Shown here: piece by piece, positions 1-63,926 of the stretch | Layout of the letters: every line of letters starts with the position of its first letter | Numbering within the stretch: the first letter of the stretch is position 1 | NCBI GenBank assembly: GCA_001799845.1 | Contig: MGUG01000013.1 | Span: forward strand, 22,597 to 86,596 | Source of the DNA: Elusimicrobia bacterium GWC2_64_44 | GTDB lineage: Bacteria; Elusimicrobiota; Elusimicrobia; Elusimicrobiales; UBA9959 | Length of the DNA: 64,000 nt | Direction of reading: 5' to 3' | Program-made: the position numbers and the translations under genes | Notes under the pieces: generated by a model | Database searches by the model: none | What the model was told of the DNA's origin: nothing | Seen by the model: the letters and a program-made list of their open reading frames with translations, nothing else

Positions 1-77
1 TGGGCGGTCTCGCCTATATACCGCTGCAGCTGGGCCAGGGACGCCCCGGCCGGCAGGCCGGTTTTGTTCTTCTTCAT
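1..77 (-). CDS. partial CDS, N-terminus only (MKKNKTGLPAGASLAQLQRYIGETA...), function unknown
   Basis: ATG at 77 lies 6 nt after a minus-strand TAGAAT box (84-89). The ORF runs off the window edge. Confidence 0.45.
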   Translation of the reverse strand, partial: MKKNKTGLPAGASLAQLQRYIGETA

Positions 78-83
78 CCGTAA

Positions 84-114
84 ATTCTACCAAACAAAAC
101 CGCCGGCCGGCTTT
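84..114 (-). promoter_or_regulatory. punctuation module, degenerate stem + TTTTGTTTGGTAGAAT
   Basis: GCCGGCCGGCGG palindrome, then T-tract and TAGAAT (84-89). 6 nt to ATG 77. Confidence 0.55.
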
Positions 115-117
115 GCG

Positions 118-756
118 CTACTTGCCCCCGGCTTTCAGCGTGGCCGGCGCCAGCGCCTTCTCTATGTCCGCCGCCAGGGCCTCGGGCTTCGTCGCGGAGG
201 CGTAGCGGGCCAGCACATGACCTGTCCTGTCCACCAGGAATTTGGTGAAGTTCCATTTTATCGCTTCGCTGCCCAGCACGCCCGGCACCGTTTTCTTCAG
301 GTACACGTAAAGCGGGTCCGCGCCCGGGCCATTCACCTCCAGCTTGCCCAGCACCGGGAAGGTGACGCCGTAAGTCAGCCTGCAGAAACGCTGTATCTCG
401 GCGTTGGTACCTGGCTCCTGGTCGCCGAACTGGTTGCACGGAAAACCGAGGACCACCAGGCCTTGCTCGGCGTATTTTTTATGCAGCTCCTCCAGGCCCT
501 CGTACTGAGGGGTAAAGCCGCATTTGCTCGCCACGTTGACGATGAGGACCACCTTGCCCCTGAGCCCTGCCAGGGGATAGGCCCCGCCCTCGGCGTTCTT
601 GACCGTGAAGTCGTAAATTGTGTTCTCCATGACTTTCTCCTTCGGCGCTGCGGTTTCCTTCCCTCCGGCTGTTGTCTTGCCGCGGGTCGGCCCCGCGGCA
701 AGACAGCAGCCGCCAAAAACGGTTATCCCCGCGCAGATAAGCAACGCTTTGGTCAT
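118..756 (-). CDS. glutathione peroxidase, probable lipoprotein
   Basis: GPx motifs NVASKCGFT, FPCNQF, WNFTKFL (Cys, not Sec). Signal peptide with FGGC lipobox-like site. Start trimmed from 879 to ATG 756 behind GGGAGG. Confidence 0.85.
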   Translation of the reverse strand: MTKALLICAGITVFGGCCLAAGPTRGKTTAGGKETAAPKEKVMENTIYDFTVKNAEGGAYPLAGLRGKVVLIVNVASKCGFTPQYEGLEELHKKYAEQGLVVLGFPCNQFGDQEPGTNAEIQRFCRLTYGVTFPVLGKLEVNGPGADPLYVYLKKTVPGVLGSEAIKWNFTKFLVDRTGHVLARYASATKPEALAADIEKALAPATLKAGGK

Positions 757-870
757 ATTCCCTCCCGGCAGCGCCTTACATATAGTAAAGCTGAAAATCC
801 GGCGGCAGGTAACGGCTTGCTTCCCACTTCCATTGACCCTTTTCCCCTTTGCGGTCGAAAACCGGCCAGG

Positions 871-901
871 GCAAAGCAAAAACCGCCGGGGTCACCGGCG
901 G
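871..901 (-). terminator. module hairpin (7-bp stem) + TTTTTGCTTTG
   Basis: CCGCCGG-GGTCA-CCGGCGG at 883-901, downstream of the stop at 936. Confidence 0.7.
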
Positions 902-935
902 TTTGGCGGCGGCGCGGGCGGCGGGCCCGGCGGCT

Positions 936-1778
936 TTAGTCTTTCAAGGCGTCCGACGCATACTCCAGCCGGGTGCGGTAGGCCGCGGCCTTGGTGTCCT
1001 TCAGGCAGTTCAGCCAGATGTCCCAGGTGTCACGGTCCCGGTCCTGCGCCGCGAGCTTCGCGGCCTCGGCCTGGTTGGCGGGCGGGGCCTGGAACTTCTT
1101 GCTGTTCTGGGCAAGCGCCATCATCCCCGCAAAGTCGCCCTGCGCCTTGAGCTCCTTCATCTTTTTCTTCAATTCCTTCGCCTCGGCTTTGTCCTCGTCG
1201 GAAACCTTGTTCTTCCTGCCGGCGGCTTTGAGCCTGCCCTCGTCCGGGTGGGCCAGCTTGTGGGCGCGCGCCAGCAGCACGCCGGCCTCGTCGCCGTCCT
1301 GGCCGGCCGACCGGCGGAAATAGGCGCTGTCTATCCCGCCATATTCCTTCTCCAGGGCTTTCAGTTCCGCCTCTTTATGCCGCCCGGCGCTGACCTGGGC
1401 GAAGAGCTCGCCGAACGCCTGGTGCGGCGGCCGCTTTTCGGTCCTGGCCGTCACGCGCACTTCCAGTACTGTCTGCTCCCGCGAGCCCACTTTTTTGGTG
1501 TAGGTGACGTCGAAGCCGGCTTCCCCGTCGCCGCTGTAAGGCTTCACCTTGTCGCCCGGCTTCAGGCGCGCCTCGAAATATTTCCGCACGGCGGCCAGGT
1601 CGTCCTTGCTGAGGCGGGCCAGTTTCCCGGCGCCCGACGCCGTGACGCTGCCCGGGTAGAGCGGCATCGGGTGCGCCGCCAGTACTTCATCGCCGCCGTC
1701 GGCGCATAGCGTGCCCGGAGCAAAACCCTGCCCCGCCAGGCAGAGCGCGGCCGCGGCTAACAAGTTCCTGATCTTCAT
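936..1778 (-). CDS. secreted hypothetical protein
   Basis: Signal peptide MKIRNLLAAAALCLAG. ATG 1778 preceded by GGGGAGG. Lys/Ala/Glu-rich, no family recognised. Confidence 0.6.
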   Translation of the reverse strand: MKIRNLLAAAALCLAGQGFAPGTLCADGGDEVLAAHPMPLYPGSVTASGAGKLARLSKDDLAAVRKYFEARLKPGDKVKPYSGDGEAGFDVTYTKKVGSREQTVLEVRVTARTEKRPPHQAFGELFAQVSAGRHKEAELKALEKEYGGIDSAYFRRSAGQDGDEAGVLLARAHKLAHPDEGRLKAAGRKNKVSDEDKAEAKELKKKMKELKAQGDFAGMMALAQNSKKFQAPPANQAEAAKLAAQDRDRDTWDIWLNCLKDTKAAAYRTRLEYASDALKD

Positions 1779-1842
1779 ATGGCAGTTCCTCCCCGTTTCC
1801 CCTGAATGTATGATACTAAAACTTCTGTTCCCGGTCCGCCGC

Positions 1843-62484: not shown

Positions 62485-62490
62485 ATCCAG

Positions 62491-62571
62491 ATTCTACCAA
62501 AACAGAACCGCCGGGCTTCCCCGGCGGCTTAAGAGCGAACGTCAGTTAGTCATCTAGTGATCAGCGTCCCC
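62491..62571 (-). promoter_or_regulatory. full module: type-A stop block + hairpin + TTCTGTTTTGGTAGAAT
   Basis: Stem-loop 62508-62527 (loop CTTC). Block GGGGACGCTGATCACTAGATGACTAAC. 6 nt to ATG 62484. Confidence 0.65.
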
Positions 62572-62572
62572 A

Positions 62573-63025
62573 TTATTCCTTCGACGGTTTGTCACCAGCC
62601 CCCGCGCCGAAGAGTTTCTGGAAGGCGGCCATTTCCATGGGGTGCATCTCCATGTCGCCCCGGCCGCGTATAGTGAAGTTTATCCTGTAGTTTTTCTTTA
62701 GCGAGAGCATGGCGTACTGGGCCTCGTTGGGGTTGAGCGCAAGCACCACCCCGTGCAGATCGCCCTTGTCTACGGTATCGAGCACCAGCACGTTCTGCAG
62801 TATGGTGGCGGTGAGCGTCTGCGTCCCGTCCTTCATGACGGCGTCGAAGGTGACCGTCATGTCCAGGCGGTCGCCGGGCTTAATGTAATGCAGCTCCACC
62901 CGCTCCGTGGGCACCACCGTGGCCCTGTAGCCTGGCGGCACGTTCAGCTTTGCCGCGCCTGCGAAGGCCGCCCCCGCGCACACAGTCATTACCGCCGCGA
63001 ATACCGCTATCCTGGTAGTTTTCAT
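62573..63025 (-). CDS. secreted RcpC/CpaB C-terminal-domain-like protein
   Basis: Signal peptide. IKPGDRLDM...ILQNVLVLD...VVLALNPNEAQ...L pattern of the CpaB beta-clip domain. GGGAGG SD. Confidence 0.5.
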   Translation of the reverse strand: MKTTRIAVFAAVMTVCAGAAFAGAAKLNVPPGYRATVVPTERVELHYIKPGDRLDMTVTFDAVMKDGTQTLTATILQNVLVLDTVDKGDLHGVVLALNPNEAQYAMLSLKKNYRINFTIRGRGDMEMHPMEMAAFQKLFGAGAGDKPSKE

Positions 63026-63120
63026 ATATCCTCCCGGGAATCCTATTTTAGAGCTGTCCGCAGAAACACGGCCTTACGTTCACTCTCACTTATGATTACG
63101 CCCGCGGAGGAAAAGTATTA

Positions 63121-63176
63121 CAAACGAAACCGCCGGGTTCCCCCGGCGGCTTAAACACGAACATCAATTGGGATCA
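63121..63176 (-). terminator. module: block variant + hairpin + TTTCGTTTGTAATACT
   Basis: Stem-loop 63130-63149 (loop TTCC). Block GGGAGAACGTTGATCCCAATTG contains the racemase stop codon. Confidence 0.6.
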
Positions 63177-63884
63177 ACGTTCTCCCGCGGCGCGCAGGGC
63201 GGCGCGGGCCAGCAGGCGGGTAGAATCCAGCAGCGGCAGGGAGGTATCCCCGGGGCGCAGCAGCAGCGGGATCTCCGTGCAGCACATCCCGGCGCAGTCG
63301 CAGCCTTCGCCGTGCACACGCTCTATCACTTCCAGGAAATATTCGCGCGCCTCAGGCGTAACGCGCCCCTCCGTAAGCTCGCCGAATATGAAGGCGTTGA
63401 TTCGCTCCCGCTCGGCCTGCGCCGGTATGCGGCACTCAAGGCCGGCCGCCGCGAGCCTGGCCGGGTACACCGGCCCCTCCATAAGGTAGCGCGTGCCTAG
63501 CAGCGCCATGCGCCGGCAGCCCAGTTTGCGCGCCTCGGCGGCCACCTCGTCGGCTATATGCAGCCAGGGCAACGGCGAGCGCCCGGCAAAATGGTCCATG
63601 GCCTGGTGTATGGTGTTGTCCGGCGTGATCAGGAAATCCGCGCCCGCGCCGGCCAGCACCCGCGCCGAGCCCAGCATCAGCTCCGCCACGCCGGCCCAGT
63701 CGCCCTTGTTTATATGGCGCATGTACTCCGCCAGCGGGTAGGTGTGCATGGTGACTTCCGGGTGAAAGGACTTCTCCCCGGTAAGAGCCGCGCCCTCGGT
63801 GCAGATGGTCTGGTAGCACAAAGCCGCCCCCGGCGCGCTGCAGCCCACTATGCCTATATGTTTGAACCCGTTTCGTTCGGCCAT
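63174..63884 (-). CDS. aspartate/glutamate racemase family protein
   Basis: IGIVGCSAPGAALCY and CCTEIPLL catalytic-Cys contexts. ATG 63884 is 6 nt after TGGTAGAAT (63891-63896). Confidence 0.8.
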   Translation of the reverse strand: MAERNGFKHIGIVGCSAPGAALCYQTICTEGAALTGEKSFHPEVTMHTYPLAEYMRHINKGDWAGVAELMLGSARVLAGAGADFLITPDNTIHQAMDHFAGRSPLPWLHIADEVAAEARKLGCRRMALLGTRYLMEGPVYPARLAAAGLECRIPAQAERERINAFIFGELTEGRVTPEAREYFLEVIERVHGEGCDCAGMCCTEIPLLLRPGDTSLPLLDSTRLLARAALRAAGER

Positions 63885-63890
63885 AACGCA

Positions 63891-63926
63891 ATTCTACCAA
63901 ACAAAACCGCCGGGATTGCCCGGCGG
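63891..63926 (-). promoter_or_regulatory. punctuation module: hairpin + TTTTGTTTGGTAGAAT
   Basis: Stem-loop 63907-63926 (loop ATTG). 6 nt to ATG 63884. Confidence 0.65.

Follow-up and report, generated by a model that had tools for sequence, protein, structure and literature searches.

A stretch of 64,000 nucleotides from an Elusimicrobiales-type genome (GC ~62%), hereafter the window, carries a stereotyped hairpin whose T-tract repeatedly leads into a -10-like hexamer and, a few nucleotides later, into a start codon. This arrangement raises the question of whether the terminator of one gene also houses the promoter of the next, and whether the genes that follow are expressed from leaderless messages, as a preliminary description of this DNA proposed. 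Comparison with related loci makes it probable that the window combines terminator-fused promoters devoid of a -35 box, leaderless mRNAs and, alongside them, genes led by Shine-Dalgarno (SD) boxes.

Terminators, hexamers and start codons in the window

Measured against dinucleotide-preserving shuffles of the window, the pattern of terminator, -10 and ATG is real and far above chance. TTTG(N0-1)TARAAT occurs 26 times versus 0.20 expected, TARAAT-N6-ATG 11 times (0.32 expected), TARAAT-N7-ATG 4 times (0.26 expected), and the hairpin with its T-tract, CCGCCGGG-N4-CCCGGCGG-TTTTGTTTTG with <=2 mismatches, 28 times (0 expected). The spacings between hexamer and start codon given earlier for 16 genes are correct in all 16 (Table 1); they are 6 or 7 nt, with 46494 alone at 8 nt, and the 6-nt cases include GTG 54779 and ATG 31813, with other hexamers. 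Two leaderless candidates had been missed, ATG 8158 and ATG 7218, and orthologues keep both. By the spacing criterion, ~17-19 of the ~68 genes in the window, about a quarter, would be leaderless, with GTG as the start codon in two candidates (3738 and 54779). TARAAT-N6/7-ATG also occurs at 58537 and 39529, where it opens ORFs of just 12 and 20 codons before SD-led genes.

The terminator itself is present in ~34 near-identical copies. Its stem (CCGCCGGG/CCCGGCGG) is 8 bp long and all GC, closed by a tetraloop and followed by a UUUUGUUUUG tail, and the hairpins have folding energies of -20 to -27 kcal/mol. It lies 9-46 nt past co-directional stop codons, always oriented along transcription, and is bidirectional at 3/3 convergent gene junctions, all of which supports its predicted behavior as an intrinsic terminator. 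Direct run-on into a -10 box is seen in 15 of the ~34 copies. Fusion of a terminator to the promoter holds for only half of the 16 starts: an intact canonical hairpin leads into the hexamer at 3738, 10413, 12912, 46494, 53904, 62484, 63884 and, with a 13-nt insert, 40637. The hairpin is degenerate at 77, 41538 and 20647, with a folding energy no better than that of shuffles at the latter two, and no terminator-like hairpin is found next to the -10 at 8522, 18179, 20715, 31813 or 54779. Self-contained fused units can be claimed for roughly half of the leaderless genes of the window, and not for the remainder.

Table 1. Terminator, promoter and start-codon features of the window. Positions in brackets are those of the preceding element; lengths after the hexamer are distances to the start codon.
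Feature	Span	Strand	Arrangement	Product and remarks
ATG 77	75..106	-	Degenerate hairpin (GCCGGCCGGCGG), TTTTGTTTGG, TAGAAT (89-84), 6 nt	Gene extends beyond window edge; ten related loci have the full hairpin-TAGAAT-N6-ATG arrangement
GTG 3738	3736..3781	-	Canonical hairpin (3781-3762), TTCTGTTTTGA, TAGAAT (3750-3745), 6 nt	AlkZ-like DNA glycosylase; same module, but ATG, in orthologues L017 and L029
ATG 7218	7216..7230	-	Weak -10 TATTCT (7230-7225), 6 nt	Added leaderless candidate; TATTCT-N6-ATG conserved in L031 and L104
ATG 8158	8156..8170	-	TAAAAT (8170-8165), 6 nt	71-aa membrane protein, added leaderless candidate; four orthologues with canonical hairpin-TARAAT-N6-ATG, one with SD leader
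ATG 8522	8520..8540	-	TTTGGTAAAAT (hexamer 8535-8530), 7 nt	No significant upstream hairpin; -10 box 6-9 nt from ATG in 6/7 orthologues
ATG 10413	10411..10455	-	Canonical hairpin (10455-10436), TTTTGTTTGA, TAAAAT (10425-10420), 6 nt	GNAT acetyltransferase
ATG 12912	12910..12954	-	Canonical hairpin (12954-12935), TTTTGTTTTG, TAGAAT (12924-12919), 6 nt	Methyltransferase; hairpin -27.1 kcal/mol
ATG 18179	18163..18181	+	TTGCTAAAAT (hexamer 18166-18171), 7 nt	MATE transporter; divergent intergenic region, terminator-less; TAAAAT or TAAACT 6-7 nt 5' of ATG in nine orthologues
Divergent leaderless promoter pair	20645..20717	.		ndk / FkbM methyltransferase
ATG 20647		-	TTTGGTAGAAT (20660-20655), 7 nt	ndk
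ATG 20715		+	TTTGTTAAAAT (20703-20708), 6 nt	FkbM methyltransferase; leaderless form in 8/8 orthologues
ATG 31813	31801..31815	+	TAATAT (31801-31806), 6 nt	ATAATATA-N-ATG conserved in four orthologues
ATG 40637	40635..40691	-	Hairpin (3-nt loop), TTTTGTTTGG, 13-nt G-rich insert, TAAAAT (40649-40644), 6 nt
ATG 41538	41536..41580	-	Degenerate hairpin, TTTTGTTTTG, TAGAAT (41550-41545), 6 nt	Polysaccharide deacetylase
ATG 46494	46492..46538	-	Canonical hairpin (46538-46519), TTTTGTTTTG, TAAAAT (46508-46503), 8 nt	plsY
ATG 53904	53902..53948	-	Canonical hairpin (53948-53929), TTTTTGTTTTGG, TAAAAT (53916-53911), 6 nt	PEMT/ICMT-like methyltransferase; leaderless form in 7/7 orthologues
GTG 54779	54777..54791	-	TATAAT (54791-54786), 6 nt	ADP-ribosyltransferase-like protein; signal-peptide-like N-terminus
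ATG 62484	62482..62527	-	Canonical hairpin (62527-62508), TTCTGTTTTGG, TAGAAT (62496-62491), 6 nt	TPR protein
ATG 63884	63882..63926	-	Canonical hairpin (63926-63907), TTTTGTTTGG, TAGAAT (63896-63891), 6 nt	Asp/Glu racemase family
ATG 28477	28475..28523	-	Hairpin, TTTTGTTTTG, TAGAAT (28493-28488), 10 nt	Response regulator, very short leader; domain begins at residue 3
ATG 31613	31611..31661	-	Fused terminator-promoter, 11-nt leader	Divergent intergenic region, behind second terminator-like hairpin
ATG 11009	11007..11080	-	Fused terminator-promoter, 34-nt leader with GGGGGG SD box	Cytochrome P460
ATG 36327	36325..36406	-	Fused terminator-promoter, 42-nt SD leader
ATG 60112	60110..60185	-	Fused terminator-promoter, 37-nt SD leader	Similar modules at 47733, 52758, 58579
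Bidirectional hairpin	19556..19595	.	T-tracts on both strands, promoter-less	Between convergent genes
Convergent-junction hairpins	6678-6697 and 9028-9047			The other two convergent junctions
Two-strand hairpin	16091-16110			Further copy

Conservation of the spacing in relatives

To look beyond the window, ~0.8 Mb of sequence from 41 related assemblies was analyzed. The loci were chosen for containing the hairpin, so that terminator densities within them are inflated; ATG spacing was not a selection criterion. Of the 371 terminators in these assemblies, 139 lead into TA[GA]AAT, and 82 of these continue to an ATG at 6-8 nt. The loss of the spacing peak that would have refuted the preliminary description did not occur in this sequence: among 231 TTG(N)TARAAT sites, ATG follows at 6 nt in 92 and at 7 nt in 23, versus a background of 0-7 per spacing, and the ORFs so opened have median lengths of 153 and 133 codons, respectively. 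In the start-region logo each spacer position holds just 0.23-0.28 bits, and there is avoidance of A at -1, which would be expected of transcripts that begin with the A of the ATG.

Alignments of orthologues follow the same outline, with the -10 and the ATG invariant, the 6-nt spacer free to vary and homology from the ATG onward. They also capture apparent changes of initiation mode. The ndk gene takes the leaderless form in the window and in one relative (L006), and six other species give it an SD leader with its ATG unchanged, while relatives of plsY keep the same promoter and insert 25-30 nt of SD leader ahead of an unaltered ATG. Taken together, the spacing peak, the alignments and the switching of ndk and plsY favor the earlier interpretation of these transcripts as leaderless mRNAs, whose predictions at the level of sequence all hold.

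The coexistence of two initiation modes in one window, also part of the original proposal, is likewise borne out by sequence comparison. GGAGG or G-rich boxes lie 5-12 nt upstream of all five starts cited as SD-led (756, 1778, 4823, 11009 and 39372), and the non-leaderless genes in general, whether operon-internal or first genes with 16-54-nt leaders, have GGAGG or poly-G SD boxes. The module at 11009 illustrates the leadered mode arising from the same module type as that of the leaderless genes.

Function of the hairpin and the hexamer

The stem sequence is identical in 303/366 copies across dozens of species, without compensatory changes; in ~30% of copies a further conserved element precedes the hairpin in the 3'-UTR of unrelated genes, and modules are gained and lost between orthologous sites. 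These properties would suit a repeat propagated selfishly or by copying, in the manner of REP or MITE elements or through gene conversion, with the promoter and the leaderless appearance as by-products of where it lands. We consider this explanation unlikely, as it leaves unexplained the exact 6-nt spacing to ATG, which is kept at orthologous genes despite differing upstream neighbors. What follows the T-tract is either a perfect -10 or sequence unrelated to one, two cleanly separated classes with no decayed -10s, and the constant orientation along transcription also speaks against it. Nor are single arms over-represented: 72% of stem arms lie in hairpins, and single arms number 25 versus a median of 19 for 8-mers of the same composition. 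Copying may account for how the module arose, without competing with the functional explanation.

Conservation of primary sequence beyond mere pairing, at a position where activators bind, could instead point to a palindrome bound mainly as double-stranded DNA, by a dimeric regulator or by a sigma or polymerase accessory, and replacing the -35 rather than terminating transcription. Terminator palindromes doubling as transcription-factor sites have been reported (10.64898/2026.08.19.745784), and an extra factor was likewise proposed for the sequence-conserved TRIT terminators of Mycobacterium (PMC3152330). Such a role is nevertheless decidedly improbable for a palindrome that has no promoter after 63% of its copies and carries T-tracts on both strands at convergent junctions, and orthologous genes use the same promoter type without any hairpin.

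The promoter reads TTTG, 0-1 nt and TA(G/A)AAT, with no recognizable -35 box. By position the hairpin does occupy the -35 region, as previously described, but that region has zero information content and nothing resembling TTGACA, and TTGACA/TATAAT pairs are not enriched (12 vs 7.1±3.0 expected). Extended -10 (TGn) promoters and Gram-positive '-16 TRTG' promoters combine a -10 with a TG-containing extension that makes the -35 dispensable. The promoters of the window share this layout and lack of need for a -35, but their extension is the TTTG within the T-tract; the extended -10 label given to them is only partly apt because, although 16/26 have a proper TGn, the usual 1-nt gap is missing in 10/26, where the TG stands directly against the hexamer.

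In group B genomes, A/U-rich motifs near the start codon serve as ribosome sites of a non-SD kind (PMC6028130), and the hexamer of the window is placed at a distance that would also suit an SD box. TA(G/A)AAT might accordingly be a translation signal on a longer, read-through transcript, with the genes leadered and the hairpin acting as an RNA stabilizer or processing site. This is very improbable in view of the TTTG(N)TARAAT motifs 23-54 nt before starts with an SD box of their own (11009, 15301, 33244, 36327, 39576, 56426 and 60112), of the listed contexts of operon-internal starts, which use SD boxes and not the motif, and of the plsY relatives, which retain the hexamer yet place an SD leader after it. 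The hexamer is, moreover, preceded by a strong hairpin and U-tract, which stand alone at convergent gene ends. These observations support its assignment as a promoter, and not a ribosome-binding site.

On the promoter reading, the final TTTG of the T-tract would double as the upstream part of the promoter in ~40% of terminators, so that one ~45-bp stretch would both end the upstream unit and start the following one, a 'promoter-coupled terminator'. From the usual distance between -10 and +1, RNA polymerase would start ~7 nt past the hexamer. In over half of the fused promoters, and likewise in promoters of this type that lack a hairpin, this position would be the A of the ATG, with a spacer that is usually 6 nt and more rarely 7-8 nt long. 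The resulting mRNA would have no leader and no SD box, and its 5'-terminal AUG would presumably be read directly by a ribosome with initiator tRNA.

It is extremely improbable that the true N-termini are instead downstream Met/Val codons served by internal SD-like sequences: some ORFs do have an in-frame GTG/ATG 10-40 codons downstream, and the Pfam domains of the AlkZ-like, GNAT and methyltransferase proteins begin only at residues 26-44, but the NDK and PlsY domains begin at residues 4 and 10, codon-like nucleotide conservation begins exactly at the listed ATG, ATG frequency is 46% at +6 versus ~1-2% at neighboring offsets, and public gene calls contain 9/10 of the exact proteins. The listed start codons therefore appear well supported; GTG 54779, whose exact protein is absent among the public gene calls, is the least secure of all candidates.

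Relation to known systems

Both principles are already known, from leaderless 'group C' genomes and from promoter-coupled terminators (2026 preprint); what is new here is their combination in an extreme, unusually uniform and lineage-conserved form. In GeneMarkS-2 'group C' (Actinobacteria, Deinococcus-Thermus) a Pribnow box lies 6-8 nt before the first genes of operons, and 25-50% of transcripts are estimated to be leaderless (PMC6028130). The window resembles these genomes in having first genes without an SD box next to SD-led genes (PMC6028130), but its phylum is Elusimicrobia, for which we found no treatment of leaderless genes in the literature searched, and its -10 is unusually uniform (TAGAAT/TAAAAT with an upstream TTTG) and very often welded to a terminator.

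In the mapped promoter-coupled terminators of Fletcher et al. (bioRxiv 2026, 10.64898/2026.08.19.745784) the -10 comes straight after the T-tract, which is proposed to aid the promoter, and recycling of RNA polymerase is speculated. The position of the -10 and the bidirectional copies with an A-tract are common to both systems. Their stems, however, are diverse and can supply a -35 box, whereas a single stem sequence with nothing -35-like is found here, and leaderless starts are not discussed there. In A. baumannii 200 of the 1,810 termination sites that were mapped are coupled, versus ~37-44% of terminators here, and the distance from termination to start has a mode of ~10 bp there versus a predicted, unmapped ~13-17 bp here.

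The Mycobacterium TRIT element of the RNIE paper (PMC3152330) is similarly a lineage-restricted terminator conserved in sequence and structure, with many gene-end copies, many of them bidirectional. Its sequence is unrelated, and the passages of the RNIE paper considered here do not mention promoter fusion for it. TRIT also begins within reach of the stop codon, which it overlaps (around -8), and its U-tract is weak, whereas the hairpin described here lies past the stop and has a strong one. Uptake sequences of Neisseria and Pasteurellaceae also place a conserved oligomer as an inverted pair in many terminators (PMC1852404), but their single copies are heavily over-represented too, whereas single arms are near background here.

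Predicted leaderless starts in the window and in related assemblies

The preliminary description proposed that terminator T-tracts run directly into a -10 hexamer TA[GA]AAT (TARAAT) and that many genes start 6-8 nt beyond it, as leaderless genes with no Shine-Dalgarno (SD) sequence. The observation is confirmed: all 16 start codons named there (14 ATG and 2 GTG) have the spacing assigned to them, and the genes cited as SD-led are correctly described. Comparative evidence supports the interpretation of these sites as leaderless promoters fused to terminators, which we regard as likely.

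Distances from the -10 motif to the start codon peak sharply at 6 nt, in the 41 related assemblies as well as in the window. In the window, TARAAT-N6-ATG occurs 11 times and TARAAT-N7-ATG 4 times, against 0.32 and 0.26 occurrences expected from dinucleotide-preserving shuffles. The preliminary description had suggested that the peak be sought outside the window, and it recurs there in approximately 0.8 Mb of sequence from the related assemblies, where loci were chosen by the hairpin and not by the hexamer or the ATG. Of 231 TTG(N)TARAAT sites, 92 have an ATG 6 nt away and 23 have one 7 nt away, with 0-7 at each other spacing except for 11 at spacing 0, and the ORFs opened by the spacing-6 and spacing-7 ATGs have median lengths of 153 and 133 codons, respectively. 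At position +6 of these relatives ATG accounts for 46% of triplets, versus 2% for GTG. In the logo of 108 sites the 6-nt spacer carries 0.23-0.28 bits and A is avoided at -1; this near-absence of spacer information and the avoidance of A would fit a transcription start on the A of the ATG. Orthologue alignments show the hexamer and the ATG to be invariant and the spacer free to vary, with homology beginning at the ATG even when the upstream neighbour differs.

The promoter motif is also found 23-54 nt upstream of starts that have an SD box of their own, and operon-internal starts, in the contexts listed, carry SD boxes and not the motif, which together argue that the promoter motif is not a ribosome-binding site. 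Two genes alternate between the modes at a single start codon. Both the window and one relative have ndk (ATG 20647) in the leaderless form, and six other species have a GGAG leader before the same ATG; plsY (ATG 46494) is leaderless in the window only, its relatives keeping the hairpin and TAGAAT with a 25-30-nt SD leader. Pfam domains begin at residue 4 in NDK and residue 10 in PlsY, and public gene calls match 9 of 10 proteins with exactly predicted starts. The exception is GTG 54779, whose product, not among the public gene calls, has a signal-peptide-like N-terminal sequence.

By these criteria 17-19 of the roughly 68 window genes would be leaderless, including two candidates absent from the preliminary description (see table). 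SD-led genes, both inside operons and as first genes with leaders, coexist with them, GGAGG or poly-G boxes lying 5-12 nt before many starts, and leaders of 9-11 nt occur at 28037, 28477 and 31613.

Four other candidates were rejected. ATG 39529 (TARAAT-N7-ATG, 39516-39531, plus strand) opens a 20-codon ORF only, the real gene starting at 39576 after an SD-like box and encoding a DUF2277 protein with its domain from residue 1. ATG 58537 (TARAAT-N6-ATG, 58535-58549, minus strand) opens a 12-codon ORF only, and the real gene begins at about 58502 after an SD-like box. ATG 51243 (TAGGAT+6) is an operon-internal start at which AGGA is the SD box, and ATG 56602 (TAAAAT+5) is followed 15 nt on by a GGAGG-led ATG that starts the transposase domain. 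The short ORFs of the first two sites have canonical promoters, and that on the plus strand overlaps the DUF2277 gene start; in this they are like the short, leaderless upstream ORFs reported from mycobacteria.

The predicted terminator and its junction with the predicted promoter

The window contains 34 hairpins with a downstream T-tract (UUUUGUUUUG). The pattern CCGCCGGG-N4-CCCGGCGG-TTTTGTTTTG, allowing up to 2 mismatches, occurs 28 times, with 0 expected from dinucleotide-preserving shuffles, and the folding energy of the hairpins, -20 to -27 kcal/mol, is much lower than that of shuffled sequences. Where our crude ORF set includes the upstream gene, the hairpin begins 9-46 nt after a co-directional stop codon, which places this GC hairpin and its T-tract behind a tandem upstream gene, as in an intrinsic terminator. 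Each of the three junctions between convergent genes has a copy that is followed by a T-tract on either strand. In the relatives, the stem CCGCCGGG/CCCGGCGG is found in 303 of 366 copies with a variable loop, and the tail TTTTGTTTTG is present whether or not a promoter lies behind the terminator.

The promoter consensus is TTTG, 0-1 nt, TA(G/A)AAT, and TTTG(N0-1)TARAAT occurs 26 times in the window against 0.20 expected from the same kind of shuffle. The extended -10 element put forward in the preliminary description holds in its strict form (TGn) for 16 of the 26 promoters (TTTGnTARAAT); in the other 10 the TG abuts the hexamer (TTTGTARAAT). The hairpin does occupy the -35 region, as had been claimed, but nothing suggests that it acts as a -35 element. 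The possibility that it hides a -35 box was dropped: neither stem nor loop contains a -35-like sequence, the upstream logo of hairpin-less promoters of the same type carries no information at -35, and TTGACA-N16-18-TATAAT is not enriched in the window (12 found versus 7.1±3.0 in shuffles).

The terminator tail runs into the -10 hexamer, as first described, at 15 of the 34 terminators of the window and at 139 of the 371 found in relatives; the hexamer then begins 10-12 nt after the stem. At these junctions the terminal TTTG of the T-tract doubles as the upstream element of the promoter, and hairpin-less promoters share this TTTG. Behind the remaining terminators lies unrelated G-rich sequence with no decayed -10. 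The geometry predicts approximately 13-17 bp between the termination and start sites, which in mapped promoter-coupled terminators lie at most 35 bp from each other on one strand. The view of many genes as self-contained terminator and promoter units holds for half of the leaderless genes, 8 of 16 having an intact canonical hairpin next to the -10; a further 3 have degenerate remnants, those at 41538 and 20647 folding no better than chance, and 5 have no terminator-like hairpin there, with 18179, 20715 and 31813 in divergent intergenic regions.

About 30% of hairpins (119 of 401) are preceded, at a distance of 30-45 nt, by a second conserved element. Its sequence is (G)GGGATA-GGGGACGCTG and then two 8-9-nt repeats in tandem that co-vary between copies (ATGACTAATTGACTAACT, ATTCCTAATTCCTAACT, CTTCCTATCTTCCTAACT, CACGATAACTCGATAACT), sometimes with the repeat complement after them. 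This 3'-UTR element starts at the upstream stop codon or a few nt away, often closes all three reading frames, has unrelated genes ahead of it and finds no match in Rfam.

Relation to known systems

The stem sequence itself, and not just its pairing, is invariant across species. REP/BIME sequences are extragenic palindromes, often clustered in alternating orientation whatever the direction of transcription, in genomes that encode a RAYT transposase. The hairpin copies described here are single, oriented with transcription and each followed by a T-tract, which argues against their membership in that class. DNA uptake sequences make sequence-conserved terminators in Neisseria and Pasteurellaceae (PMC1852404). 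We rejected that model, which calls for a large excess of single copies across the genome: 64 of 89 arms are paired here, and the 25 unpaired ones are near background, the median for 8-mers of equal composition being 19. Sequence-conserved terminators are also known from Mycobacterium, as TRIT (PMC3152330).

Promoter-coupled terminators, in which a -10 directly follows the terminator T-tract, were described in August 2026 (10.64898/2026.08.19.745784), from mapping in A. baumannii, E. coli and B. subtilis, with predictions for a further six species. The window sites, with the hexamer immediately 3' of the T-tract, match that arrangement at the sequence level. The terminators of that preprint have diverse stems, are coupled at a minority of sites and come with no mention of leaderless starts, whereas one invariant stem is used here. 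GeneMarkS-2 group C genomes, typical of Actinobacteria and Deinococcus-Thermus, are defined by the presence of SD-led genes alongside genes with a Pribnow box 6-8 nt ahead of the start (PMC6028130); the window likewise has a -10 at 6-8 nt before first genes in operons, SD-led genes alongside, and AUG and GUG starts. In the literature searched, leaderless genes and Elusimicrobia are named together in only two papers, one on a Mycobacterium tuberculosis chaperone and one that does not deal with the question but puts SD use in the class Elusimicrobia at only 46% of genes. What we describe is an unusually regular combination of two known arrangements, neither of which had, in the literature searched, been described in this phylum; the underlying principles are not new.

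In vitro, RNA polymerase has been shown to remain on the DNA once it has terminated at an intrinsic terminator and to reinitiate at a promoter nearby (PMC6978380), which would be a plausible benefit of fusing terminator and promoter. A bolder reading, which we consider improbable, is that the lineage has standardised a copyable punctuation cassette comprising a 3'-UTR element that often closes all frames, a terminator palindrome of fixed sequence, a promoter lacking a -35 box and a leaderless AUG, the stem being held invariant by protein recognition or active propagation and polymerase being passed from the ended unit to the next promoter in a genome-wide coupling of termination and reinitiation.

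If the likelier interpretation of leaderless, terminator-fused promoters is right, Elusimicrobia of this clade would be a leaderless-rich lineage, affecting start-codon calling in hundreds of metagenome-assembled genomes, attempts at gene expression and the reading of regulation. The clade would also provide the clearest natural case to date of coupling between promoter and terminator, one invariant terminator having either a perfect -10 or nothing behind it and roughly half the promoters coupled to it starting directly on an AUG, and the switches at ndk and plsY would be natural experiments on the interconversion of initiation modes. Such regularity makes the questions raised by the preprint and by polymerase recycling, namely whether the T-tract aids the promoter and whether bound polymerase aids termination, testable with few constructs. 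The practical value lies in Elusimicrobia genome annotation and in a model for promoter-terminator coupling.

Distribution and further loci

The window has a GC content of 58-65%, and its minus strand carries most genes. An exact search with the 30-nt core of the repeated module, in a set with a single genome for each species, gave 108 stretches, of which nearly all come from metagenome-assembled Elusimicrobia (Elusimicrobiales/Elusimicrobiaceae); orthologues of many window genes in these relatives have 75-95% nucleotide identity, none being identical. The window itself therefore belongs to an uncultured relative of Elusimicrobiales type. No match to the 30-nt module was found in the viral contigs scanned. 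Rfam (gathering threshold) and ARAGORN found no match in the window, which indicates that the modules are not known RNA families and are not tRNA-linked. Two related loci bear other labels: L068 (PHEU01, Actinobacteria) has the module and window-gene orthologues at 80-83% identity, and L088 (MHBG01, Lentisphaerae) has both the 3'-UTR element and the hairpin. Each of these contigs probably consists of Elusimicrobia DNA that was mis-binned.

Features located in the window (start-codon or interval positions)
Feature	Position	Strand	Remarks
Additional leaderless candidates	ATG 8158, ATG 7218	-	
Short ORF with its promoter	39516-39591	+	ATG 7 nt after -10
Short ORF with its promoter	58499-58549	-	ATG 6 nt after -10
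3'-UTR element	starts 62571, 58299, 55667, 52789, 48999, 46569, 40729, 32734, 31697, 12997	-	also at many related loci
Two consecutive terminator-like hairpins	31640-31745	-	CCCACTCCGGGGTGGG+CCTTTTGG, then canonical module with 3'-UTR element
20-nt sequence GAAGGCGA(C/T)AGGCCCTTGTC	58204-58227, 45800-45822	-	shared, directly after two promoter-less terminators
G homopolymer before ATG 48821	~48822-48835	-	~13 G
G homopolymer before ATG 25838	~25839-25850	-	~10 G
ADP-ribosyltransferase exoenzyme protein, secreted-looking	53976-54779	-	PF03496, E=1.6e-9; TATAAT-N6-GTG start
IS3-type insertion sequence	56617-57704	+	HTH_Tnp_1 ORF and rve integrase ORF; adjoins ORF6N-domain gene
ORF6N-domain gene	57637-58170	-	N-terminus cut off by frameshift or stop

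The double hairpin sits between divergent genes, with no gene upstream of it in the same direction, and appears to keep antisense read-through out of gene 31813-32649. The 20-nt sequence shared by two promoter-less terminators could be an operator or leader element. The long G tracts, each directly in front of its ATG, serve as poly-G SD boxes; at such lengths slippage could make them vary, or they could be sensitive to assembly. The ORF6N gene matches its Pfam profile from position 18 and is preceded by a 24-codon ORF from ATG 58170, and the ADP-ribosyltransferase gene is found at 93-96% nucleotide identity in two relatives.
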